Assembly (NCBI GenBank): GCA_965219535.1
Contig: CBDCNV010000001.1
Span: 1,140,001-1,172,000, forward strand
Direction: 5' to 3'
DNA: 32,000 nucleotides
Source of the DNA: Opitutales bacterium
GTDB taxonomy: Bacteria > Verrucomicrobiota > Verrucomicrobiia > Opitutales > PNEW01
The position numbers and the translations under genes are program-made. The first letter of the stretch is position 1, and the number at the start of each line of letters is the position of its first letter. The notes beneath the pieces are model-generated. The model was not told the DNA's origin. It searched no databases and saw nothing but the letters and a program-made list of their open reading frames with translations. Shown one piece after another: positions 3,209 to 28,555 of this stretch.

Positions 3209-3663
3209 GAGGAGTCTAAGGTCGAAGGTCAAAAGTCGAAAGCAGGAAACAAGAAATATTTTACAGGAAGAACGGGAAGGCCGGGGAGAAAGAAGGGGGG
3301 ATAGCCACAAAAGGCACAAAATGAAGATTAGAATATTTATTACATATTAATGGGAAAAAGCGGTAATATTGAACCGCAGAGGCGCAGAGATCGCAGAGAC
3401 AAAGACTGACAAGTGGAGTTGACAATTTACAACTGGGTGGGTGAAACGCGGTGATTGATCTCAATGTCATCCCCCCGCATTTGCGGGTGGGATTGACTAC
3501 GGCTTTCCCTAGCGCTTTTTTTAAATTGTGATTTAAAAAAACGTGTAGGAAACATCCGGCGTCCCGCGGTGGCGGGACTATTGTGATCAATCACCGCATT
3601 TCACCTTAGTTATTCTGGATCTACTATTGCATTCGACTTTAGACATTCGACTTTAGACTCCTC
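3209..3663. repeat. Foldback mosaic element R1 (455 bp) with nested inverted repeats
   Basis: The outer arms are gaggagtctaaggtcgaaggtcaaaagtcgaaag (3209-3242) and tcgactttagacattcgactttagactcctc (3633-3663). An inner 21-bp IR, ggtgaaacgcggtgattgatc (3440-3460) with gatcaatcaccgcatttcacc (3585-3605), has 1 mismatch. GC hairpins lie at 3471-3491 and 3561-3578. Confidence 0.85.
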
Positions 3664-3689: not shown

Positions 3690-3905
3690 TTAATTTTCCC
3701 GATCTTCCCGAGCTTCCTGTAAAACCTCTTTCTTCTCTTGCCTGTCGGCCATAGCCTTGGCGACGGCTGGTGCTTTTGGAAGATCTCGCTGCGCTTTGGT
3801 AGTGCCTTTGAAAGATGTCGCCGCTGGCTCGGTAGTGCCTATCCTACCCGTAAAATCCCTCTTTCTTCTCTTGTGCTTTTTGTGCCTCTTGTGGCTATTC
3901 CTCAC
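3690..3905. repeat. Low-complexity mosaic segment R2 (its ORF is spurious)
   Basis: It has internal direct repeats gtaaaa(c)ctctttcttctcttg (3719-3740 and 3850-3873), an rc copy of the CGCCAAGGCTATGGC module (3741-3770), and a gccacaagaggcacaa word shared with 205-220 and 3301-3322. Confidence 0.75.
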
Positions 3906-5588: not shown

Positions 5589-5616
5589 GACCAAAATGAG
5601 CTAGCTCATTTTGGTC
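5589..5616 (-). terminator. Perfect 28-bp palindrome centred on the stop codon of the epimerase gene
   Basis: In gaccaaaatgagct|agctcattttggtc the stop codon (cta, rc tag) lies at 5601-5603. The 5' arm in mRNA sense is the last 4 codons of the CDS. Confidence 0.4.
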
Positions 5617-6509
5617 TTGAGCCACCATTGATAGGTCATGGCCAGGCCGTCGTGGATGTTGTAGCGGGGTGTCCAGTCGAGATCGCGACGGGCTTTTTCG
5701 TTGGAGTATACGGAGCTGATTCCCCACCCAAAGGGGAATACGTCAGCCTCGAGTTCATCATAGCGTTTGGGATCGACGTGAATCACTTCCACTTCCTTGT
5801 TCATGACTTTACTCAGGGTTTGCAAATAACCGTTAACGGTTATCATCTCATTCGCACCGATGGTATAGATTTGGCCTGCTGCCTGTTTTTGACTTGGAAC
5901 AGCGGCAAACGCGGCGGCCAGATCATCGACGTGGATAAAGTGGAGGAGCCGTTGACCATCGCCGGGGATAATTAATTTACGTCCGTGAGTGATACGGGCA
6001 AAGAAAGTATGCTCGCGCTGTTTCAAGTTATTGTGCGGACCGTAGACATAGACCAGCCGCAGTGAGGTTGTCGGCAGCCCGAGCTCCGCGTGTACTTTTA
6101 AGAGAAGATCTTCACAGGCGATCTTGTCCCTGGCGTAGTCACTGGCTTCCGGTCTTCTGTCGAGGGCGGAATCTTCAAAGATCGGCCTGATTTCGGAGGG
6201 CGCGTAAACGGAAGTCGAGCTGCAGAAGACATAATTACCGATCTGACCATTGAGAATATTAATAACATCTTCAACGACGTTCGGGGTATAACCCGAAATG
6301 TCATAGACGACATCAAATGATTTACCCTTCAATGCCTTTTCGACCTGATTTCGGTCATCGCGATCGGCGCTGAGACGATTGACTTCATCCGGAAGCTGTG
6401 CCTCGCTCAAACCCCGGTTCAAAATAGTTACCTTATGTCCCTGTTTAATTAAATATTCAACAAGGTGTAACCCAATAAATTGGGTGCCGCCTAATACTAG
6501 TGATTCCAT
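5601..6509 (-). CDS. NAD-dependent epimerase/dehydratase family (extended SDR) protein
   Basis: The N-terminus MESLVLGGTQFIGLHLVEYL carries the Rossmann GxxGxxG motif. I place the start at ATG 6509. The track ORF starts at a TTG (6551) inside repeat arm R5, and those extra 14 aa are repeat-encoded. Confidence 0.8.
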   Translation of the reverse strand: MESLVLGGTQFIGLHLVEYLIKQGHKVTILNRGLSEAQLPDEVNRLSADRDDRNQVEKALKGKSFDVVYDISGYTPNVVEDVINILNGQIGNYVFCSSTSVYAPSEIRPIFEDSALDRRPEASDYARDKIACEDLLLKVHAELGLPTTSLRLVYVYGPHNNLKQREHTFFARITHGRKLIIPGDGQRLLHFIHVDDLAAAFAAVPSQKQAAGQIYTIGANEMITVNGYLQTLSKVMNKEVEVIHVDPKRYDELEADVFPFGWGISSVYSNEKARRDLDWTPRYNIHDGLAMTYQWWLKTKMS

Positions 6510-6537
6510 AAAACGTAACCAGAGGTAACGTTTTATG

Positions 6538-6638
6538 GAGTCGAAAGTCAAAGGTCAAAAGTCGAAGGAAATGATGCTAAAAGCTTTACCACTTTCACAC
6601 AATTCCGCATTCGACCTTTGACTTTCGACCTTCGACTC
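6538..6638. repeat. Foldback element R5 in a divergent intergenic region
   Basis: The left arm is gagtcgaaagtcaaaggtcaaaagtcgaagg (6538-6568) and the right arm is ttcgacctttgactttcgaccttcgactc (6610-6638). Confidence 0.85.
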
Positions 6639-6651
6639 TTTCAATAAAGTC

Positions 6652-7530
6652 ATGATCAAAAGTAAAAACGACTACCCTACGACAGAAGAACTGGTGGAAC
6701 AGGTGAGGGAGGTGGGCTATTGCCTGATTGAAGGTATTATACCTGAAGATAAATTAGAGCCGATTAAAAAGGAAATTTCGGACGCGGCTCATGCAAATTG
6801 CAGCGATTATGCGTCTGAAAACATAACGCACCTGTCCGGGACGATTAATTATACCCAAAGTTTTGCGGAGTATGTCGCACACCCGCGTATCCTGGCACTG
6901 GTGGACACATTTTTCGGCCCTCACGCGCGCGTCTCCTCGACGACGACGACGATCAATGAACCGGGAAATAAGCGCGGCATGTGGCATTCCGACTGGCCAT
7001 TCAACCAGAGGAACGCGGGTCACATTCCGGTACCCTATCCCGACTTGATGGTTCACATCACTTCGATCTGGATGATGTCCGCCTTCACTAAAGAGAATGG
7101 AGGGACTTTGATTCGGCCGAAAAGCCATAAGCTTAATTACAATCCGAGTGTGGACTATCCGGAAAATAAAGCAAAGACATCGGATAAAAAAGCGATGGCG
7201 GAAGGGTGGACGACGGTAGCCTGCGATCCTTTAGATGATGAAATAAATGCCACCGGTCCTGCCGGCAGTGTGCTCTTTTTTGACAGCCGCTTATGGCACG
7301 CCACGGCGCCCAACACTTCCACCGATCCTCGCGTCGCGCTGATTGTGCGTTACGCCCCCTGGTGGATAAATTTAAAATCCTGGAGACCCGGTTCGATTGA
7401 TAGAAAAATAATTTCCGAAGAGCCCGGCATTTTTGAAAACGTGCTCGCCCCACTACCCGTAGCCGTCTACGAAAAATTGCCCGAAGTAACGAAGCCACTG
7501 TTCAGGCATTGGGTTGAGGAAAACTCGTAG
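6652..7530 (+). CDS. Phytanoyl-CoA dioxygenase (PhyH) family Fe(II)/2-oxoglutarate oxygenase
   Basis: The 292-aa product has WHSDWPF (HxD-type metal site) and LWHATAPN (distal His), which are typical of PhyH. Confidence 0.75.
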   Translation: MIKSKNDYPTTEELVEQVREVGYCLIEGIIPEDKLEPIKKEISDAAHANCSDYASENITHLSGTINYTQSFAEYVAHPRILALVDTFFGPHARVSSTTTTINEPGNKRGMWHSDWPFNQRNAGHIPVPYPDLMVHITSIWMMSAFTKENGGTLIRPKSHKLNYNPSVDYPENKAKTSDKKAMAEGWTTVACDPLDDEINATGPAGSVLFFDSRLWHATAPNTSTDPRVALIVRYAPWWINLKSWRPGSIDRKIISEEPGIFENVLAPLPVAVYEKLPEVTKPLFRHWVEENS

Positions 7531-7538
7531 TTTTCCTC
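7516..7538 (+). terminator. 9-bp hairpin with the stop codon in the loop
   Basis: In gaggaaaac-tcgta-gttttcctc, TAG lies at 7528-7530. The 5' arm is the last codons (VEEN) of the CDS. Confidence 0.4.
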
Positions 7539-7723
7539 GTCGAATGTCTAAGGTCCAAAGTGAAAACGCGTGAAAGCGATAAAGCGTGAATGCGGATTAA
7601 TTCAGGGTGCAGGATCCAAGGAAATCTTCTTAATTTCCACATTTCCGCATCATCGCATATACTCATTCTCGCATATACGCATTTTCTTATTCCACCTTTG
7701 ACATTAGACCTTAGACTTTAGAC
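7539..7723. repeat. Foldback mosaic element R6 (full nested form)
   Basis: The heptamer arm gtcgaatgtctaaggtccaaagtg is at 7539-7562. The octamer array gtgaaaac|gcgtgaaa|gcgataaa|gcgtgaat|gcggatta is at 7560-7600. The loop contains ggtgcaggatccaaggaaatc. The octamer array cgcatcat|cgcatata|ctcattct|cgcatata|cgcatttt is at 7647-7686. The heptamer arm ccacctttgacattagaccttagactttagac is at 7692-7723. Confidence 0.9.
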
Positions 7724-7733
7724 AAATGAACCC

Positions 7734-8726
7734 ATGGGTTCATTAGTCGAAAAGCCTATCGGGCGAAGTGGTTTGAGGATGAGTGCGATTGCGCTGGGGG
7801 CGGGGACTTACGGGCGTGAGATCGACGAGGAGGCGTCCTGGAAGGTACTCGATTATGCGACGGAAAAAGGAATAACTTTTCACGACAACGCGGAGATGTA
7901 TGGCGGGGGCAATACCTACGAAAAACGCAAAGCGGATTATGGCACTACGGAAGTGCTGGAGGCATCGACCGAGATGTATTCGGGGGAGAAAATATTCTCA
8001 AGATGGATGAAAAATCGCGGTTGCCGTGATGATGTTGTCATCTGCACAAAAGTCAGCAGTGGGAACAGCGCGGAAAATATTAAGAAGCAGATGGCGGCCA
8101 GCCTCGAGCGGCTGGAAGTCGACTGTGTGGATGTTTACATGTTACATTCTCCCGATGACAGCGTGCCGATTGAAGAAACGATGGATGCGCTCAACGAGGA
8201 AGTAAAAGCCGGGCATACGAAGGTGATTGGGTGCAGCAATTTTTCGGGCGCGCAATTACGGGACGCGCTCGCGGTCAGCGCGAAGAAAGGTTACGCCCGT
8301 TTTGAAATTACCGAGCCCCGCTATAACCTCGCGGATAGAAAATCGGAGACGGATGATTTTCCCATTTGCCGGGAGGAAGAGATAACGGTTATGCCCTACA
8401 GTCCATTAGCCGCGGGATTTCTCACCGGTAAATATACACCGGACCGTTCACAGTTTCCCAAGGGCGCGCGCTTTGATCTTTCACCCGGCCACGCCGACAT
8501 TTACTTCAACGATCATAATTTTCGGGTGGTCGAACACTTGCGCAAAAAAGCCGAGGAGATGGGACTACCCATGGTGCGTCTCGCTATGGCTTGGGTGATG
8601 ACTAATCCCGATGTCACCGCCACCCTCATCGGCGCCCGAACAACCGCGCATATCGACAACGCTCTCCTCGCCGCAGAAATGGGACTCGATCCCGCATTAC
8701 GCAAAGAAATGAGTAGATGGGAATAG
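7734..8726 (+). CDS. Aldo/keto reductase family oxidoreductase
   Basis: The 330-aa product has IGRSGLRMSAIALG, DNAEMYG, DVYMLHSPD and GCSNF blocks typical of AKRs. Confidence 0.85.
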   Translation: MGSLVEKPIGRSGLRMSAIALGAGTYGREIDEEASWKVLDYATEKGITFHDNAEMYGGGNTYEKRKADYGTTEVLEASTEMYSGEKIFSRWMKNRGCRDDVVICTKVSSGNSAENIKKQMAASLERLEVDCVDVYMLHSPDDSVPIEETMDALNEEVKAGHTKVIGCSNFSGAQLRDALAVSAKKGYARFEITEPRYNLADRKSETDDFPICREEEITVMPYSPLAAGFLTGKYTPDRSQFPKGARFDLSPGHADIYFNDHNFRVVEHLRKKAEEMGLPMVRLAMAWVMTNPDVTATLIGARTTAHIDNALLAAEMGLDPALRKEMSRWE

Positions 8727-9303
8727 GAGTCGAAAGTCGAAGGTCTAAGGTCGAATGCGGAATCTAATAAATCTGAGAAAGATTAGGAATTAGTTTCTAT
8801 TTTGGTATCTGATTTATCTTGTTTAATACGGCGCATAAGTGCAGCGATGCCTTTCGAGATATTTCTACTAGCTTCTCTTAAGTTTACTGCATCGTTTTCT
8901 ACTATATAATTAAGATCTTCAGCAATATAGAGCATATTTCTTAATTCTCCACAGGAGCCTTTTGCGATGCTAAGAAAACGATAGAACTCAGCGTCTCCTT
9001 TTCTTTCATAACCCTCCGAAATATTATTCATTACTGATACACTTGATCTTTGGATTTGATCTTTAAAGCCATAGTCTTTTGACGCCGGTGTTGACCCACC
9101 AAACGATTTATAAATAGTCGTGACTAAAGTTCTTGCTTCTTGCCAGATTCTCAGATCTTCGAAGGATTTTACTGGGTTCATAATATGATAAATGTTGATG
9201 TTGAATTAATGAGATCTATATAGAATTTAATTCGGTAAAAAATACACTAAACTTAATAGTGATTATTTCGCCTTCGACTTTAGACCTTCGACTTTCGACA
9301 TTC
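8727..9303. repeat. Foldback element R7 carrying a cargo gene
   Basis: The left arm is gagtcgaaagtcgaaggtctaaggtcgaatgcggaat (8727-8763) and the right arm is ttcgccttcgactttagaccttcgactttcgacattc (9267-9303). A ~27-bp core is complementary with 1 mismatch. The arms enclose ORF 8783-9181. Confidence 0.9.
8783..9181 (-). CDS. Four-helix-bundle protein (23S rRNA intervening-sequence protein family)
   Basis: The 132-aa product has FEDLRIWQEA, SVMNNISEGYERKGDAEFYRFLSIAKGSCGELRNMLYIAEDL, the signature layout of this family. Confidence 0.85.
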   Translation of the reverse strand: MNPVKSFEDLRIWQEARTLVTTIYKSFGGSTPASKDYGFKDQIQRSSVSVMNNISEGYERKGDAEFYRFLSIAKGSCGELRNMLYIAEDLNYIVENDAVNLREASRNISKGIAALMRRIKQDKSDTKIETNS

Positions 9304-9325
9304 AAATCGCTCACGCGATTTGAAT
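9300..9325 (-). terminator. 11-bp perfect hairpin with the stop codon in the loop
   Basis: In attcaaatcgc-tcac-gcgatttgaat the stop (tca, rc tga) lies at 9311-9313. The arm at 9315-9325 is the last codons (IQIA) of the ADH gene. Confidence 0.4.
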
Positions 9326-10297: not shown

Positions 10298-10316
10298 GAT
10301 TTGAATTGTAAGAGCA

Positions 10317-10591
10317 GAAGGTCGAAAGTCAAAAGTCGAAAGGGTTGAAAACCGGTAGATTTTCAGTGTTAGGTGTTAAGTAAGAATGGGGGTAAATGCG
10401 GCATGAGTGTATGTCATTATGCGTGTATGTGGATGGTCACTTGGGTCTTATTCGGCTATGGCATTAGCGACGGATGATTGTAGCTGAGTAGATGTAATTA
10501 TCCTTAAATAATCCGCATTATCGCATAATCGCATTCACGCGTATTCATAATCTCGCATTCTACCTTTGACATTAGACCTTAGACTTTAGAC
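10317..10591. repeat. Foldback mosaic element R8 (full nested form)
   Basis: The left arm is gaaggtcgaaagtcaaaagtcgaaaggg (10317-10344). The right octamer array is cgcattat|cgcataat|cgcattca|cgcgtatt|cataatct|cgcattct. The right heptamer arm is tacctttgacattagaccttagactttagac (10561-10591). It contains a degenerate rc copy of the GGCTATGGC module. Confidence 0.85.
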
Positions 10592-10601
10592 AAAAGAACC
10601 C

Positions 10602-11726
10602 ATGGATTCTATTGTCGAAAAGCCTCTATTAATCATCGATGGTCACTTGGATATGGGGTTTAATGCGCTTTTTAATCAACGTGATCTTACACAGTCGATC
10701 CAGGTTTTGCGTGAGCGCGAGGACTCTCTAAAGAACAAACTGGGACCCTATGAAACCGATCCGGGAACGGTTACGGTTTCACTTCCGGAATTAAGGCGAG
10801 GTTGTGTTGGCATCATGCTGGCTACGATAATGGTACGGGTCCAAGTGCCGTGGCCAGGAAGACCGAATTGCCATAATGCGGTGCGCACGCAGCCGACAGC
10901 CTATGCGCGCGGCCAATCCCATCTCGCTTATTACCAGGCTCTGGAAAAGGAAGGAGAAGTATCCTGGATTAAAACACTCGAAGACTTGGACTCGAGTGTA
11001 GCCGCCTGGGAAAACCCCACCCCGGATACTCCGGTCGGTCTAATCCTTTCGATGGAAAGCGCCGATCCCATCCTCGGGCCCGACCAGGTAGCTCAATGGT
11101 GGGAGGATGGACTGCGCGCGGTCGGCATTACTCATTTCGGAGCGAATTCTTACGGGCACGGGACCGGTACGCCGGGAGGACTTTACCCAACCGCATACCC
11201 TCTTTTGGATGCCTTTGCGGATACCAATATGATCATCGATCTCACGCATGCCGCTGATACCGCGTTCTGGCAAATTCTCGATTATTGGGAGGGACCGGTA
11301 CACGCCAGCCATTGTAACTGTCGCGCGCTCGTGCCCGGTCAACGCCATCTCAGTGACGAGATGATAAAAGCGCTCTGCGAACGCGGTGGTGTCATGGGCA
11401 TGGTATTCGCTGAGTCCATGTTGAGCCCCCAGTGGGATTGGGATGATCCGAGTACGCATTACACCAAAGCCACGCGACCGATGAAAGCGGTCGTGGAACA
11501 TGTCGACCACATCTGTCAACTCACGGGTAATACGGATCATGTAGCGATCGGCACGGATCTCGACGGTGGATTTGGGCGAGAAATTGCACCTATTGACATG
11601 GATACGGTCAACGACCTGCAAAAATTTTTAAACATACTACGTGATCGGGGATACAGCGAAGAGGATGTAGAAAAAATAGCCCATGGAAATTTGTTACAAC
11701 TCTTCCGCAACGCATGGAGCAAATAA
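10602..11726 (+). CDS. Peptidase M19 (membrane/renal dipeptidase) family protein, paralogue 1
   Basis: The 374-aa product has IDGHLD (HxD), SMESAD, IIDLTHAAD, ASHCNCRAL and IGTDLDGGFG blocks collinear with M19 metal-ligand positions. Confidence 0.8.
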   Translation: MDSIVEKPLLIIDGHLDMGFNALFNQRDLTQSIQVLREREDSLKNKLGPYETDPGTVTVSLPELRRGCVGIMLATIMVRVQVPWPGRPNCHNAVRTQPTAYARGQSHLAYYQALEKEGEVSWIKTLEDLDSSVAAWENPTPDTPVGLILSMESADPILGPDQVAQWWEDGLRAVGITHFGANSYGHGTGTPGGLYPTAYPLLDAFADTNMIIDLTHAADTAFWQILDYWEGPVHASHCNCRALVPGQRHLSDEMIKALCERGGVMGMVFAESMLSPQWDWDDPSTHYTKATRPMKAVVEHVDHICQLTGNTDHVAIGTDLDGGFGREIAPIDMDTVNDLQKFLNILRDRGYSEEDVEKIAHGNLLQLFRNAWSK

Positions 11727-11728
11727 TA

Positions 11729-12829
11729 ATGGCCGATAAACCCATGCTCATTGTAGACAGCCACCTCGACCTGGCCTTTAACGCGATCCAGATTAATCGG
11801 GACATCACACAACAGGCGGCCGTTGTTCGCACCCATGATCATCAATCCACTCTCTATCGTTTTGGAAGTTCGACTGTTACTTTTCCCGAGCTGAGAAAAG
11901 GAAAAGTAGGAATCGTGTTCGGGACGGTTATGTCTCGAATCGATCCCACCGATTGGCTGGGGCGCACCGGGGGGATGTATTCACAAGCGCAATGTTACGG
12001 AGTAGGTCATGGACATTACTCTTTTTACAAGGCGATGGAACGGGAGGGGATACTTAAATTTATCCAAAATGCCGAAGATCTCGATGCGATGGTCGAGGCC
12101 TGGGAAAATCCCTCGGCTGATACTCCTTTTGGTTTGGTTCTCGCGATGGAAAGCGCGGATCTTATCTTAGACCCTGACGAGGTCTCCAAATGGTACGACC
12201 GCGGATTACGTATCGTCAGTATTTCTCATTACGGCAACAACACCTATGCCCAAGGTACTGATACCGAGGGCGGCCTCTTACCCAAGGGGAAGCCTCTTCT
12301 AGACGCATTGAAAGCAAGTGGTATCATTGTAGATATGACTCATACAACAGATCAGAGTTTTTGGGAAATATTAGACTATTATGATGGGCCGGTTGCCGCT
12401 TCCCATCACAATTGCCGGGCCCTCGTCCCGGGTCAGCGACAGTTAACCGATGATATGATTAAGGCAATTGTCGAACGCAATGGCGTGATTGGAGCCGCAT
12501 TTGATGTATGGATGCTCGATCCCGATTGGACAAGGGGTGTTCGCGGGTGTGATCAAACGACGAAAGCTACGCTTGAAACGGTAGTCGATCATATCGACCA
12601 CATTGTCCAACTAGTGGGCAGCGCTAATCACTGTGGAATCGGTACCGATCTCGACGGGGGTTACGGGCAGGAGCAATCGCCCCGCGATCTCAATACGATT
12701 GCCGACCTGCAAAAACTCCCCAGCATTTTTAAAAAGCGCGGCTATAATGAAGAAGATATATCCAAATTTCTTTCAAAAAATTGGATTAATTTTTTGAAAG
12801 AAACTTGGAGTCAAAAGTCGAAGGTCTAA
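11729..12829 (+). CDS. Peptidase M19 family protein, paralogue 2
   Basis: It is collinear with paralogue 1 (roughly half of positions identical by eye). I prefer ATG 11729 (MADKPMLIVDSHLD), which aligns with KPLLIIDGHLD, over the track start at 11714. The last codons, QKSKV*, are encoded by repeat arm R9. Confidence 0.8.
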   Translation: MADKPMLIVDSHLDLAFNAIQINRDITQQAAVVRTHDHQSTLYRFGSSTVTFPELRKGKVGIVFGTVMSRIDPTDWLGRTGGMYSQAQCYGVGHGHYSFYKAMEREGILKFIQNAEDLDAMVEAWENPSADTPFGLVLAMESADLILDPDEVSKWYDRGLRIVSISHYGNNTYAQGTDTEGGLLPKGKPLLDALKASGIIVDMTHTTDQSFWEILDYYDGPVAASHHNCRALVPGQRQLTDDMIKAIVERNGVIGAAFDVWMLDPDWTRGVRGCDQTTKATLETVVDHIDHIVQLVGSANHCGIGTDLDGGYGQEQSPRDLNTIADLQKLPSIFKKRGYNEEDISKFLSKNWINFLKETWSQKSKV

Positions 12830-13002
12830 AGTCGAAAGTGGAAACGTGTGAATGCGGATTATTTCAAGGTGCAGGTTCCAAGGAAATCATGGTAGTTACC
12901 ACATTTACGCATCAACGCTTACACGCATGTTCGCGTAAGAGGATGTCGGGCTCTACCCTCGGTACGCATTACCTTTGACTTTCGACCTTCGACCTTCGAC
13001 TC
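12808..13002. repeat. Foldback mosaic element R9
   Basis: The left arm is gagtcaaaagtcgaaggtctaaagtcgaaagtg (12808-12840). The loop sequence ggtgcaggttccaaggaaatc matches R6 at 20 of 21 positions. The module gaggatgtcgggctctaccctcggtacgc is at 12939-12967. The right arm is acctttgactttcgaccttcgaccttcgactc (12971-13002). Confidence 0.9.
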
Positions 13003-14095: not shown

Positions 14096-15505
14096 ATGGA
14101 TGGTGTGAGTATCAAAGGAGCTGAAATATTAATCGTTGAAGACGAGCCACTCTTGCGAAAACGATTAGCGGGTTTCCTTGAAAATGAGGGCGCCGGAGTC
14201 ACGGCAACTGAAAATATTGAAGGTGCCACTAATTGTTTAAACGACCTGCATTTTGATTACGCATTAATTGATATAAATTTACCCGATGGTTCGGGAATTG
14301 ATCTTTTACGAAATAAAAAGGTATCTGCAAATACGAGCGTCGTCATTATGACTGCTGAAGGCGGTGTGGAAAGTGCGGTTGAAGCCATGCGCCTCGGTGC
14401 CTCAGATTATTTGAGTAAGCCATTTGATCTCGAAGAATTACCGTTAATTTTCAAGCGCTGCGCGCTGGTCCGTCATACTGAGCGTTTACAGGAACATCAA
14501 CGTGAAGAGGGCTCTCGAGTTGAAGAGCAATTCTATTTTGGAAAATCCCTGAACACGGTTGAAAAGCAACTTGAGCAAATAATAAATGCCGACCGCCGAT
14601 TGGGAGAGGGGCTGCCACCTGTCCTGATCGAGGGCGAGACCGGTAGTGGGAAAACAGCCATCGCTCGCTGGTTGCATCACCGCGGACCTAGAGCTGCTCA
14701 ATCTCTGGTCGAGATTAACGGTTCGACATTACCAGAAAATCTAGCTGAATCAGAACTGTTCGGTCATGAGCGCGGAGCTTTCACCGATGCTAAAAATGCC
14801 CGAATCGGCCTCTTTGAAGCTGCAGATGGGGGCACGCTGTTTCTCGATGAACTCCCTAGTTTATCGTTAGCTGTACAGGCCAAAATATTGACTGCGATTG
14901 AAGATCGCAAAATCCGCAGGGTGGGGGGGAATAAAGAAATCCCCGTCGATGTACGTTTGATCACGGCTACGAATAAAGATCTGCAAGAACTTGTCACCAC
15001 CGGTGCCTTTCGCGAGGATCTGTATCACCGGCTCGACCTGATGCGCATCAATATTCCACCCTTACGCGAACGTGGTAAAGATATTATTAATTTGGCTTCT
15101 CATTTGCTCGAAGATCTATCTCACCGTTACCGCGTGAAAAAAGCTGAAATTTCTGATCTCGGAATTAAAAGACTGCTCGCTTATGCTTGGCCGGGTAACG
15201 TGCGCGAGTTGGCCCATGAGTTGGAACGTTCTATAGTTATGTTAGAAAATGATAGCCTGGATTTCGATCGCCTTGATAAAGCATCGACAATTAACAAAAG
15301 TCACGATGAGGCCATACTGGACGCAACTGATTGGTTTAATGAAAGCTTTGTTTTTCCGGAAGGTGAATTCAAGCTTGAGGAAGCCATTTCACGAATTATT
15401 CAACAGGCGCTTAAACAATCGAATAACAATGTATCCGCGGCGGCTCGCCTACTTGGCGTGCCCCGTGATTACATCCGTTATCGCTTGTCGGGGCAGAAGA
15501 AATAG
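14096..15505 (+). CDS. Sigma54-dependent response regulator (NtrC/ZraR class: REC + AAA+ + Fis-type HTH)
   Basis: The REC domain is ILIVEDE..LIDINLPDGSG. Walker A is GETGSGKT. The GAFTGA-type loop is ERGAFTDA, followed by GGTLFLDE. The C-terminal HTH is NVSAAARLLGVPRDYIRYRL. Confidence 0.9.
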   Translation: MDGVSIKGAEILIVEDEPLLRKRLAGFLENEGAGVTATENIEGATNCLNDLHFDYALIDINLPDGSGIDLLRNKKVSANTSVVIMTAEGGVESAVEAMRLGASDYLSKPFDLEELPLIFKRCALVRHTERLQEHQREEGSRVEEQFYFGKSLNTVEKQLEQIINADRRLGEGLPPVLIEGETGSGKTAIARWLHHRGPRAAQSLVEINGSTLPENLAESELFGHERGAFTDAKNARIGLFEAADGGTLFLDELPSLSLAVQAKILTAIEDRKIRRVGGNKEIPVDVRLITATNKDLQELVTTGAFREDLYHRLDLMRINIPPLRERGKDIINLASHLLEDLSHRYRVKKAEISDLGIKRLLAYAWPGNVRELAHELERSIVMLENDSLDFDRLDKASTINKSHDEAILDATDWFNESFVFPEGEFKLEEAISRIIQQALKQSNNNVSAAARLLGVPRDYIRYRLSGQKK

Positions 15506-21776: not shown

Positions 21777-22106
21777 CGAGTAACCTTACTTATGTCCCCC
21801 TGCTGGGGGCTAATAGCCTAGTTCACTAATATGATTTATATTTATCTTCGTTTTCGACCACGCTTGCCACATCGTAGACTACTGCGAAGACGGGTCTGCC
21901 TCTTAGTCCATCCAGTTATTAATAGAATAGATAGGTGGAACGCGGTGCCTGACGGCCTTCGCCAAGGCTATGGCGGTCAGGACTTCGATGAGCTCAGCTG
22001 AATCGCAGCCCGCTCCACCATGGATTGCAAGATAATCTATATTTGCCAGGGACAAAGACCAATACGACGAATCCATACGCTCTTACTTTACACCGTACTG
22101 TTACAT

Positions 22107-22265: not shown

Positions 22266-22292
22266 TGATCGGACCCCGTTTTTCGTACCAAT

Positions 22293-23258
22293 TTAAGTGA
22301 GAGAGTTACCGGGTGTTAATGGTTTTAGGATTGATGTATATGAGAGATCTTGGCGAAGTGAGGGCGTAGCCCGAACGCGGCCAAGATCGGAAAGGAATCT
22401 GACAAACTCTTGTGGGCTTTTGAAGCCTAAACGACTGTGGGGATGTTCATGGTTATAGGTCTGACGCCATTGTTCGATTACCACTTGCGCTTCAGCCACG
22501 CTGAGTAACACTTCACGGTTCAAACACTCATCGCGTAAGCGGTTGTGAAACGACTCGATGAAACCGTTTTGCCAGGGACTGCCCGGATCGATATAGATCG
22601 CCTTTATGTTATTACCGGACAACCACTGCTGCACTTGATGAGCAATGAACTCACTGCCGTTGTCACTACGGATATAGCTGGGAGGTCCCTCCTCTTCAAT
22701 GGCCTCGCTAAGCACAGAGAGGACATCGGTTGAGGTGAGTTGACGAGCGACCCGGATATCCAGGCATTTACGCGTATATGTCTTCGCTTCGCTTGAGTGT
22801 CGTCGCTTTCAGCTCCTCGGTACATCGATTAGAGTCATCATCTTTAATGGACCGCCGTTGTCTGTACGATCATGGACAAAGTCCCAGGACCAAACGTGAT
22901 TGCGACCCTTTGCTTTAGTAGGTGACCCCGTAGAGACTCCTTGACGGTGTCTGCCCTTTTTCGGGGGCTTTACCTGCAGCCCTTCTGAACGTCGTACCGC
23001 CTGGACAAACTTCCTGCTTGTTGTCCAGCCTTCCTTTACCAGCAAGGCACGGATGCGCCGGTAACCGTAGCGGGGATGTTTCCAGGACAAGCTCACAATC
23101 CGCTCGACCAACCGCTGAGCTTTCTCACTGGCCTGTTTGGGCCGGTAACTGAACGTTGACCAACTCAGGCTGAGATAAGCACAAGCCCTCCGCAACGAGC
23201 ACAACCCTTTCTCAGCCGCAGCTTTTACTACTCGTTTCTTCTGCTTTGGGCTCACCAT
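22293..23258 (-). pseudogene. OrfB of IS copy 2, with the same in-frame TGA (22809-22811)
   Basis: Track ORFs 22293-22715 and 22809-23258 are identical to those of copy 1. Confidence 0.75.
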
Positions 23259-23332
23259 TTTTTTGACAGCGTTTCCTCCATTACCTGATTCTTGAGCATT
23301 TGATCTGCGAGCAGCTTCTTCAGCTCGGTATG

Positions 23333-23545
23333 TCAGGCCTTCTCGCTTGCGCTCGTGAATTCTTTTTCCAGCTCTTTAAATCGCTTCGCATCGGCAAGTT
23401 CTAAATTGCCATATTTTTTACGCCAGCGATAGAAAGTCTGTTCGCTCAGGTTGTTTCCACGGCAGATTTCCTGTACCGTTTTACCGGTATCGGCTTGCCG
23501 CAATATTGTTATAATCTGTTCTGTTGTGTATCTTTTTCTTTTCAT
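23333..23545 (-). CDS. OrfA (HTH) of IS copy 2
   Basis: Its 70-aa product is identical to that of 693-905. Confidence 0.75.
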   Translation of the reverse strand: MKRKRYTTEQIITILRQADTGKTVQEICRGNNLSEQTFYRWRKKYGNLELADAKRFKELEKEFTSASEKA

Positions 23546-23610
23546 TGAGGTTATCTGTTTATCCCGATAACCTCTCTCTGTAAATGATACGATTTTTGGG
23601 GGTCACTCCA

Positions 23611-23827
23611 CCTCATTAATAGGATCTGCCGGTAAATCAATCTTCCCCAAATATATATCTTTACCAAGATTGAAACGGGTCCCATCGATATTGTTTTTAG
23701 TAGCCGATGCCGACGAGATGGAACTATGATCTGTGGTGCGTGGCGGTGCCGAATAATCGCCAGAACCCAAGGCGGTAAGAACAGGTAAGAGAATACAACA
23801 TGTCAAAAGACTGCTAATATATTTCAT
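23611..23827 (-). pseudogene. N-terminal half of the small secreted-protein gene split by IS copy 2
   Basis: The signal peptide MKYISSLLTCCILLPVLTALG is followed by ..GKDIYLGKIDLPADPINE. The frame runs into the IS end and stops at a TGA within the IS. Confidence 0.7.
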
Positions 23828-25351: not shown

Positions 25352-25444
25352 CTCTTCGTCTTCGTCTTCGTCTGCCTCTTCGTCCATCGTATCGTAAGGA
25401 GTAAAAAAGCGGACGAAGACGAAGAGTCAGACGAAGACGAAGAT
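25352..25444. repeat. Foldback element R12 built from GACGAAG words
   Basis: The left arm is ctcttcgtcttcgtcttcgtctgcctcttcgtcc (25352-25385) and the right arm is ggacgaagacgaagagtcagacgaagacgaagat (25411-25444). The loop is 25 nt. Confidence 0.9.
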
Positions 25445-26015: not shown

Positions 26016-26296
26016 CTTCGTCTACGTCTGATTCGCTGTAATAGGATTGAAGATATTTTTTAGGATTGGAGGGACGCACTCCGTTGCGTCCGCTATTATA
26101 TGAAGATTACGGCCACGATCAGCCGACGCCAAGGCTATGGCCGACAGGCAGGAGCGTGGCCCTCCAGACGGGCTGTTCCTTAGCACGCTTCTTTAATTAA
26201 GACAAATCTAACGCGGTAGGGACACCGCGTTCCACCTTGATTTTGTATTATATAGATGAATCGGACGAAGACGAAGAGGCAGACGAAGACGAAGAT
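26016..26296. repeat. Foldback mosaic element R13 (GACGAAG type)
   Basis: The left arm is cttcgtctacgtctgattcg (26016-26035). The right arm is gaatcggacgaagacgaagaggcagacgaagacgaagat (26258-26296) and is nearly identical to the R12 right arm. Inside are the hairpin ggacgca-ctccgt-tgcgtcc (26072-26091), the CGCCAAGGCTATGGC module (26121-26148) and caccgcgttccacc (26223-26236). Confidence 0.85.
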
Positions 26297-27287: not shown

Positions 27288-27521
27288 GGTCAAAAAGTCA
27301 AAAGGTCAAAAAGTCAAAAAGGGAATTGGGAAATGTGTGTATGCGATAAAGCGTGCATGCGGAATGCTTAGTGATATAGGATACTTTTAGCGATTACCGC
27401 TTTTGGGAGATGTCGTCCCACTACGGCGGGACTCGGTCCGCTTCACCACATAATCGCATGTGAGGATGTCGGACTTCGACCTCGGTACGCGTATACGCAT
27501 ATACTTTTCGACATTTTGACC
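27288..27521. repeat. Foldback mosaic element R14 (GTCAAAAG type)
   Basis: The left arm is ggtcaaaaagtcaaaaggtcaaaaagtcaaaaaggg (27288-27323). The inner module is gtatgcgataaagcgtgcatgcggaat. The module gaggatgtcggacttcgacctcggtacgc is at 27462-27490. The right arm is cttttcgacattttgacc (27504-27521). Confidence 0.85.
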
Positions 27522-28268: not shown

Positions 28269-28555
28269 AGTCAAAAGGTCAAAAGGCATAGACTAGTGAA
28301 CAGTGAACGGTGAACAGTAAACAGTGATAGAGTCAAATCGATTGCTGATTTGCGAATTATACTAGCGGTTGTAAATTTTTTTCCCTGAACCCTGAACCCT
28401 GAACCCTGAACCCTGAACCCTGAACCCTGAACCCTGAACCCTAAACCGAGGGCGAAGCCCGACATCCTTAAAAAGAGTATAAGAGGAGCATCTTCCACAG
28501 ATCTCTGGTCTTCTCCTTTTGACCTTTTGACCTTTTGACTTTTTGACCTTTTGAC
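28269..28555. repeat. Foldback mosaic element R15 with several different word arrays
   Basis: The left arm is agtcaaaaggtcaaaagg (28269-28286). Five AGTGAAC-type units lie at 28295-28330, and the CCCTGAA array at 28383-28445. An rc copy of the gaggatgtcgg..cctcgg module is at 28446-28467. The right arm is ccttttgaccttttgaccttttgactttttgaccttttgac (28515-28555). Confidence 0.9.
28383..28445. repeat. Tandem heptamer array (CCCTGAA)x8 plus one CCCTAAA unit
   Basis: Eight perfect units start at 28383. The ninth unit is ccctaaa (28439-28445). Confidence 0.95.

Follow-up and report, generated by a model that had tools for sequence, protein, structure and literature searches.

In a stretch of 32,000 nucleotides (nt) from an uncultured marine Opitutales bacterium (Verrucomicrobiota; assembly GCA_965219535.1, contig CBDCNV010000001.1, positions 1,140,001 to 1,172,000; hereafter the window), two genes for unrelated enzymes, an aldo/keto reductase (AKR) and an M19 dipeptidase (M19a), begin with the same block of DNA. 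We describe here the structure of this block, its replacement in both directions across related genomes and its restriction to these two genes. We hold with moderate confidence that the two copies are alike through ectopic gene conversion between neighbouring intergenic repeats. The phenomenon looks like local, repeat-driven swapping of gene starts, not like a genome-wide mobile cassette.

A repeat search of the window found a gap-free direct repeat of 114 nt (7644-7757 versus 10512-10625) with 95 identical positions and 19 differences. A first-pass annotation of this DNA had noticed a match between 7692-7757 and 10560-10625; the match is present, and the similarity extends farther upstream than was claimed, to 7644/10512. 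Between 7691-7757 and 10559-10625 the identity is 61 of 67 bases; in the first 24 coding bases, which encode MGSLVEKP in AKR and MDSIVEKP in M19a, it is 20 of 24. As the same annotation had proposed, the shared DNA runs in both genes from the upstream sequence through the start codon to the eighth codon. Upstream of the ATG lies a 27-nt arm of tandem units, TTTGACATTAGACCTTAGACTTTAGAC, exact at 7697-7723 and 10565-10591. No third site for it was found in the window at up to 3 mismatches, and 100 dinucleotide-preserving shuffles gave an expectation of 0 chance matches. When the eight arm-preceded gene starts of the window were compared over positions -90 to +24, the AKR/M19a pair was 84% identical, compared with 50-65% for other pairs. 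Block copy 1 was also found, exact, in two other assemblies (L001 and L002).

The two ATGs are the only plausible starts of AKR and M19a, because each is preceded, at a distance of 15 nt, by an in-frame TAG (7719-7721 and 10587-10589, respectively) and reading of the sequence found no alternative start codon ahead of either conserved domain. The repeat arm itself ends about 10 nt before the ATG, and the coding region is entered instead by a short palindrome that includes the start codon (Table 1). Owing to this palindrome, the AKR copy also holds an out-of-frame upstream ATG, which opens a 6-codon reading frame (7726-7746, MNPWVH and a stop) overlapping the AKR start; the M19a copy has AAAAG where the AKR copy has AAATG, and is without this ATG.

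Table 1. Coordinates of the block, its genes and the surrounding palindromes in the window
Feature	Position	Strand	Description
Block copy 1	7644..7757	+	Inner 'CGCAT'-type module, 7-mer arm, 10-nt spacer, ATG, 8 AKR codons
Block copy 2	10512..10625	+	Continues into M19 dipeptidase a (M19a); repeat search
Gene-side (F) arm of AKR	7697..7723	+	Four tandem TTNGACN; right arm of the PhyH-AKR intergenic palindrome
Gene-side (F) arm of M19a	10565..10591	+	Identical to the AKR arm; right arm of the ADH-M19a intergenic palindrome
Partner (R) arm, PhyH-AKR gap	7528..7565	+	GTCNAAN units from the PhyH stop codon; predicted to pair with 7697-7723
Partner (R) arm, ADH-M19a gap	10310..10347	+	Repeat search and predicted fold
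AKR gene	7734..8726	+	Aldo/keto reductase; Pfam domain from residue 19
M19a gene	10602..11726	+	M19 dipeptidase a; Pfam domain from residue 9
AKR start palindrome	7717..7752	+	TTTAGACAAATGAACCC ATG GGTTCATTAGTCGAAA; 11 of 12 positions pair, AUG in apical loop
M19a start palindrome	10585..10620	+	Same palindrome, weaker; 10 of 12 positions pair
PhyH stop-codon hairpin	7516..7538	+	GAGGAAAAC-TCGTA-GTTTTCCTC; mirror counterpart of the start hairpin across the long palindrome

Block classes in related genomes

How do the two copies compare with their counterparts elsewhere? Syntenic clusters in five related Opitutales assemblies were found from the AKR and M19a homologues (L003; L004 and L136, on one contig; L005; L137/L138; L142), and nine AKR and M19a start regions were aligned. 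They fall into two classes: class I combines 7-mer arms with the spacer AAA(A/T)GAA(C/T)CC (AAATGTCCCC in L005), and comprises both window copies and the AKR regions of L137, L004 and L005; class II has arms of the 8-mer TTTTGACN and the spacer T(A)ATG(T/A)CCC, and comprises both L003 regions and the M19a regions of L136 and L137. The usual assignment is class I for AKR and class II for M19a. There are two exceptions: M19a of the window carries the AKR type and AKR of L003 carries the M19a type, which means that copying between the two genes went in both directions. Over positions -50 to -1, identity is 78-92% inside a class and 63-76% across classes, with 90% for the window pair, 90% for window M19a against L137 AKR, and 92% for the L003 pair. 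A response regulator gene (RR, at 14096) had been listed as a similar start on account of its 'cccATGGat' context. This context is not conserved: L003 has ATA and a GTG start, and the L004 and L137 sequences differ there. Nor does the gene have a block in common with AKR or M19a.

Between the window and L003, the AKR coding sequence is 92% identical but the 50 nt upstream only 68%, and because of this disparity we conclude that the block was replaced and did not diverge by mutation, in opposite directions in two lineages. What could be the mechanism? The simplest that would account for two-way replacement is ectopic gene conversion. Ectopic conversion and the correction of quasi-palindromes make the copies within a genome more alike, act in short discrete tracts and change the arms of a palindrome together. 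Block copies within a genome are indeed more alike than orthologous copies, while the flanking AKR coding sequence remains 92% identical. The tract is also discrete: similarity begins at 7644/10512 and stops past codon 8, or past codon 4 in L003, where the M19a protein has block-encoded MGTL fused straight to the conserved IIDGHLD. Transfer in both directions in different lineages and a discrete tract are thus features shared with ectopic gene conversion in general; unlike in usual ectopic conversion, the tract here crosses from a non-coding repeat into two unrelated genes and exchanges the start codon and the leader.

In the course of events that we propose, the neighbouring intergenic repeats PhyH-AKR and ADH-M19a would recombine non-reciprocally, one block being copied over the other. 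The donor in the window would be the AKR-type block, and the converted tract of about 114 nt would end at [D/E]-K-P codons that both families already possess. Such a swap may be tolerated because the first eight residues lie outside both catalytic domains.

To whom does the leader peptide belong? The leader motif M[GD][ST][LIFY]x[DEN]K[PTL] is limited to AKR and M19a, both across 236 kb of DNA from this organism and in the related loci. The leaders of the window pair are 88% identical in global alignment (the 20 of 24 given above being ungapped), compared with 71% against the three class I AKR orthologues and 75% against L003; the L136 M19a leader is 92% identical to those of both L137 AKR and L005 AKR. 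Close and distant AKRs carry ..E[EQ][KR]P[IL]G.., with ..LE[EQ][KR]P[IL]G.. in the more distant ones, the AKR leader MGKFKLTDKKIG occurs without a repeat upstream, and an AKR of 64% identity with neither arms nor palindrome upstream starts MGKFKLTDKKIGRT. Distant M19 enzymes start M[PAS]DKP[IVL]LIIDGHLD, and the tandem paralogue M19b starts MADKP. For M19b the listed start (ATG 11714, which overlaps the end of M19a) is probably not the true one: an in-frame ATG at 11729 gives MADKPMLIVDSHLD, matching the L137 orthologue (MADKP) and the usual M19 leader.

Both families thus possess the [D/E]-K-P residues natively. The leader itself looks native to AKR, with M19a as the recipient and the junction at DKP codons already present in both, and for this reason the idea that the repeat supplies both N-termini is weakened. 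The earlier statement that each enzyme aligns to its own family only after KP goes too far: the Pfam domains do start past the block (residues 19 and 9), but AKRs and M19 enzymes carry KP leaders natively. The same annotation had reasoned that finding these N-terminal residues without a repeat upstream in orthologues of related genomes would refute a gene-start cassette; on the AKR side, the 64%-identical enzyme comes close to being such a case.

Palindromes at the gene boundaries

Rather than a free-standing element, the block forms the gene-side end of a palindromic intergenic repeat built of modules. All eight gaps between 3.2 and 14.1 kb have an R arm first and a complementary F arm last, irrespective of gene orientation. 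The R arms, of about four tandem GTCNAAN units, lie at 3210, 5505, 6536, 7528, 8725, 10310, 12806 and 13831, and the F arms, TTNGACN x4, at 3629, 5559, 6607, 7687, 9263, 10555, 12971 and 14048; between these outer arms are further complementary 7/8-nt units of the GCGTGAA / CGCAT type and a central loop. The order in a gap is that of a stop-codon hairpin, the GTCNAAN arm, inner units, the loop, complementary units, TTNGACN x4 and a start-codon palindrome. In the predicted fold of 7510-7770, a small hairpin at the PhyH stop, a long imperfect hairpin of the arms and a small hairpin at the AKR start follow one another (-83.6 kcal/mol, z = -4.9). The ADH-M19a gap has a similar predicted fold (z = -3.5). 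A search of the whole window against Rfam 15 gave 0 matches at gathering score.

The gene ends show features of their own. Stop codons are centred in small palindromes beside the arm in the window (7516-7538, 5589-5616 and 9300-9325; for example GACCAAAATGAGC TAG CTCATTTTGGTC) and likewise in L003 (5780-5800) and L004 (5480-5500), and the stop palindromes of PhyH orthologues carry compensating substitutions (CCTC/GAGG, CCCC/GGGG, AAAACG/CGTTTT). M19b, which ends at 12829, reads into the stop-side arm at 12806-12843 and has the C-terminus ...SQKSKV; several more genes in L003, L004 and L136 read into a stop-side arm, their last residues and stop being arm-encoded. Repeat-supplied gene ends are commoner at 3' than at 5' ends.

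The arms also vary in type. When orthologous gaps of the window were compared with those of L003, L004 and L137, both sides were found to switch together, from the 7-mer GTCGAAN to the 8-mer GTCAAAAN. The arms ahead of seven compared cluster genes are 7-mers in the window and, in L003, 8-mers in five of the seven; two gaps are mixed, AKR-M19a in L003 and in L137. This joint switching of arm type suggests within-genome homogenisation. Other unit families in the window are GTCAAAAN, GACGAA, CCCTGAA and AGTGAAC, which in the right half form inverted arms round genes, as (CCCTGAA)9, (AGTGAAC)4.7, (GACGAA)5 and (GTCAAAAN)4-5, at 28383-28447, 28295-28327, 25353-25443, 26264-26295 and 27289-27321 / 28515-28555. 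Another locus of the same genome, L127, has GTGAACA, GGGTTCA and GTGTTAA units. A further repeat, CACCAGCCGTCGCCAAGGCTATGGCCGGCAGGCAAGA, occurs in both orientations at 170-254, 3735-3772, 21950-21986 and 26117-26153 of the window, is nested in the PhyH-AKR gap of L005 and has a more diverged form in that of L004.

At the start codon, the spacer together with the last arm unit reads as the reverse complement of AKR codons 2-5, and the window-specific codon 5, GTC, lengthens the pairing into that unit. Start-centred palindromes of at least 8 pairs were found at 12 of 41 arm-associated starts and at none of 87 controls, which were starts from arm-free loci of the same genome (Mann-Whitney p = 2e-5); the genes concerned are AKR, M19a, epimerase, Ldh_2 and SSF. 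Of the 81 stem cells in the nine regions aligned for AKR and M19a, 66 are paired in register, compared with 27-33 in a shifted register. Double compensating changes occur: (i) a stem position that is C-G in most regions is T-A in L004; (ii) a pair that is T-A in the window AKR is A-T in L137, L004 and the window M19a; and (iii) class II has two further such changes in L137 M19a. In Ldh_2, the protein sequence MLER is constant while the Arg codon varies (AGA/CGT/CGA) and the upstream strand covaries. The epimerase gene (5601-6551, minus strand) has a listed TTG start inside an arm; its likely start is ATG 6509 (MESLVLGGTQFIG), which belongs to the right arm of a hairpin of 12 nt, TCCATAAAACGT...ACGTTTTATGGA.

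What might the start palindromes do? Either selection on an RNA hairpin or template-guided correction of a quasi-palindrome could lie behind the constraint on them. Shine-Dalgarno-like tetramers are rare in the organism, preceding 11 of 75 control starts and none of 27 arm-associated starts. We infer only that the start palindrome may form an RNA hairpin that presents or masks the AUG in a host mostly without Shine-Dalgarno sites, and that the long hairpins may serve in RNA processing or stability. We considered a palindromic operator for a dimeric regulator and rejected it, since each gene has a palindrome of different sequence and the substitutions compensate one another. Sigma-70 promoter-like matches are not enriched (12 found, compared with 15.2 expected from shuffles), and a leaderless mRNA with its -35 element inside the arm fits ADH alone, where TTGACT-16-TACAAT ends 7 nt ahead of the ATG, and neither of the two block-bearing genes.

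Distribution and relation to known repeats

To sample the same organism, ten further 20-kb loci were obtained with an exact-match probe, one open reading frame (ORF) of an insertion sequence (IS) element that the window holds in two copies. Ffh from one of these loci is 65-69% identical to proteins of Coraliomargarita, Puniceicoccaceae and Opitutales, which places the host in Opitutales. Tandem-unit arms are patchy: they are present in the window, in L127 and in L131, a locus that overlaps the window, and absent from seven other 20-kb loci. Even at up to 5 mismatches, the 27-nt arm variant occurs only in this gene cluster. The first-pass annotation had asked how many genome copies of the arm run into an ATG and an MxSxVEKP N-terminus; in the 236 kb only AKR and M19a carry such a leader. 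Thus, its portrayal of the repeat as a portable gene-start cassette survives in that the block delivers a start and a leader and has moved between AKR and M19a; general portability does not, the motif being found on these two genes only. The IS element in the window is of the IS3 family (HTH_21 / rve_3 ORFs). Its two copies of 1346 nt (627-1972 and 22266-23611) are 100% complementary and stand in inverted orientation on either side of the entire 20.3-kb gene cluster, much as in a composite transposon or an invertible segment; its ORF lies at many other sites of the genome.

Beyond the organism, a Joint Genome Institute (JGI) metagenome scan with the class I block gave one match, which was without arms and taken as chance. 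TTNGACN x4 arrays were found in many phyla among the matches listed in a scan of genome contigs. Inverted pairs forming intergenic hairpins occur in Pyrinomonadaceae (Acidobacteriota), Deinococcota, Stigonema and one unclassified metagenome-assembled genome, and one-sided heptamer arrays in Planctomycetota; among the matches listed, Aerosakkonema, Stigonema, Nostoc and Scytonema have TTNGACN arrays, often as inverted pairs. In the window, a gene of family PF05635 (23S rRNA IVP) lies in the loop of a heptamer-arm hairpin (ORF 8783-9181, minus strand; arms 8729-8763 / 9265-9299). A Pyrinomonadaceae locus (L084, 2319-2795) has a PF05635 gene between murD and ftsW with GTCCAAA/TTTGGAC arms, where murD reads into one arm and ftsW starts 8 nt past the other. 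Among the matches listed, 1 of 120 arm-bearing loci in other phyla has a PF05635 gene inside its arms, and support for a link with this family comes from the window, L136, L137 and this one Acidobacteriota locus. That the arms belong to PF05635 elements is a lead only.

Several known repeats invite comparison. The Correia elements of Neisseria (CREE/NEMIS, Correia repeat enclosed elements or Neisseria miniature insertion sequences), the repetitive extragenic palindromes (REP) with their mosaic elements (BIME, bacterial interspersed mosaic elements) and the enterobacterial repetitive intergenic consensus (ERIC) are short intergenic palindromes that are co-transcribed, form long hairpins and serve as substrates for recombination and rearrangement; they can bring promoter parts or RNase III sites to a neighbouring gene. 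Like these, all eight gaps have inverted arms able to form hairpins (z = -4.9 and -3.5 for the two gaps above). Unlike them, as judged from their descriptions, the arms here are tandem 7-/8-nt units and not a unique terminal inverted repeat, the distribution is patchy with two copies of the block and not hundreds of near-identical dispersed copies, and small stop- and start-codon hairpins flank the long one. Nor were hallmarks of miniature inverted-repeat transposable elements (MITEs) seen: no direct duplications flank the arms in the window or the related loci, and there is no presence/absence polymorphism, the same junctions carrying the element in all related genomes, degenerate in L142. 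It is the unit type, not the presence of the element, that varies at the junctions among these genomes.

Rickettsia palindromic elements (RPE) are in-frame insertions of 30-50 residues inside many genes. As in RPE, repeat-derived DNA is translated here in tolerant segments of unrelated proteins, but only in the first 4-8 codons of two neighbouring genes, and most of these residues are native to one gene. The short tandemly repeated repetitive (STRR) sequences of heterocystous cyanobacteria are tandem heptanucleotide repeats in intergenic DNA. Our units are likewise tandem, intergenic and 7 nt long; they appear to differ from the published STRR sequences and stand in an Opitutales host, and to our knowledge an arrangement of inverted arms round genes is not part of the STRR description. 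Integron cassettes with their attC sites resemble the cluster in that genes are separated by imperfect palindromes and content varies among relatives. Unlike in integrons, the genes lie on both strands and the arms are tandem 7-/8-mers with no single R''/L''-L'/R' set; no integrase family of Pfam is in the gene lists of the window and related loci. The intervening sequences (IVS) of 23S rRNA that contain a PF05635 four-helix-bundle ORF share the long stem with an ORF in the loop; unlike IVS, the copies here lie between protein-coding genes and not inside rRNA.

Weighing the explanations

Could the block be a mobile, MITE-like gene-start cassette of arm, spacer, ATG and leader that inserts before genes and provides a promoter or 5' untranslated region, a start and an N-terminus? 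The L003 M19a start, supplied by the block alone, would fit, as would the similar palindromes at the epimerase starts of L004, L003 and L137 (gacTAATGTCC ATG GACATT; gacTAGTGAATC(T/C) ATG GATTCACTA) and the likeness of arm units to a TTGACA -35 hexamer, with the ADH match noted above. Yet in the 236 kb the leader motif is limited to AKR and M19a, the arm variant to this cluster, and 7 of 10 other 20-kb loci have no tandem-unit arms. Moreover, the arms show no target-site duplication, both families have the [D/E]KP residues natively, there is no enrichment of promoter-like matches and the JGI scan returned a single chance-like match. We therefore regard such a cassette as unlikely. We assign a similarly low probability to an insertion footprint, in which a circular piece with AKR and its downstream repeat would have entered by a single crossover at the M19a block and left an attL/attR-like duplication. 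The copies are indeed direct repeats flanking AKR (with IVP and ADH), the gene content between them varies among genomes (AKR-IVP-ADH-M19a in the window, AKR-M19a in L003 and L137, and in L004 AKR-SDR with ADH-M19a-M19b about 10 kb away), and two hybrid blocks, L136 M19a and L005 AKR, switch type at the ATG. L142, with PhyH, a degenerate class-I-like arm, the leader MKPFSNKP and M19a in direct succession and no AKR, is what an empty or excised site should look like. However, L003 and L137 have the same gene order and different block classes, which calls for replacement without insertion; no integrase or recombinase domain is among the Pfam gene lists of the window and related loci besides IS transposases; and the AKR leader resembles that of distant AKRs without repeats.

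If each enzyme had been selected on its own for a functional peptide, for instance a tag or a targeting signal, this would explain why an 8-residue leader of the same form is found in all AKR and M19a orthologues of the clade. We consider this reading very improbable, since the identity extends about 90 nt into non-coding DNA and includes synonymous positions, leader residues 2-5 vary freely and follow the upstream spacer and not a peptide consensus, and the L003 M19a does without half of the leader. Although tandem 7-mers make the arms low in complexity and long-read coverage of the assemblies is only 4-10x, chance similarity or an assembly artefact is hardly credible given an exact 27-mer with 0 expected, a pair identity well above the 50-65% background, a copy 1 that recurs exactly in two other assemblies and an equivalent pair in L003. 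A broader and tentative possibility, to which we give a small share of belief, is that the block is the edge of a 'gene punctuation' system: genes in some regions of Opitutales genomes would be bracketed by a stop hairpin, a tandem-unit hairpin and a start hairpin, and the arms of several phyla would be intergenic IVS-like elements, some with a PF05635 gene, that are removed or processed as RNA, are homogenised by conversion and routinely give stop codons, C-terminal tails, start contexts and N-terminal codons to their neighbours.

Several points weigh against local gene conversion, or against the roles suggested for the hairpins. The 8-codon leader is common to AKR and M19a in all these genomes, and part of the similarity is accounted for, with no need of recent conversion, by an old duplication and subsequent drift. 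The L142 arrangement fits either a deletion of AKR between direct repeats or an insertion of AKR that duplicated the block. The assemblies are all metagenome contigs from long reads at low coverage (4-10x), and genes are frameshifted in L001. That assembly is from the same organism, and its M19b, SDR and RR genes are split by frameshifts whereas they are intact in the window; public long-read assemblies of this organism do carry indel errors. Hairpin covariation is marginal under partner permutation (127/2000), and stems are broken in 2 of the 9 AKR/M19a start regions, the hybrids L005 AKR and L136 M19a; the constraint on the start palindromes, though real, is therefore not absolute. Start-codon use, transcript 5' ends and a possible RNA role we infer from the sequence.

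Tandem-unit arms, paired stop and start hairpins, and a conversion tract crossing into two unrelated coding sequences set this case apart from its nearest known counterparts, the Correia/REP/ERIC repeats, the RPE and ectopic gene conversion. Through recombination between intergenic repeats, a gene can pass its start codon and leader peptide on to a neighbour of another family, and sister lineages show this in opposite directions. Translation starts and N-termini can be rewired by this route, and annotation pipelines and orthology-based start prediction would miss such swaps. The heptamer-arm architecture around the block is its more unusual aspect: tandem 7/8-mer arms together with compensating stop and start hairpins point to a structural constraint at gene boundaries, which may matter more than the block. 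If they prove to be RNA processing or translation elements, heptamer-arm hairpins would be a widespread class without a match in Rfam.

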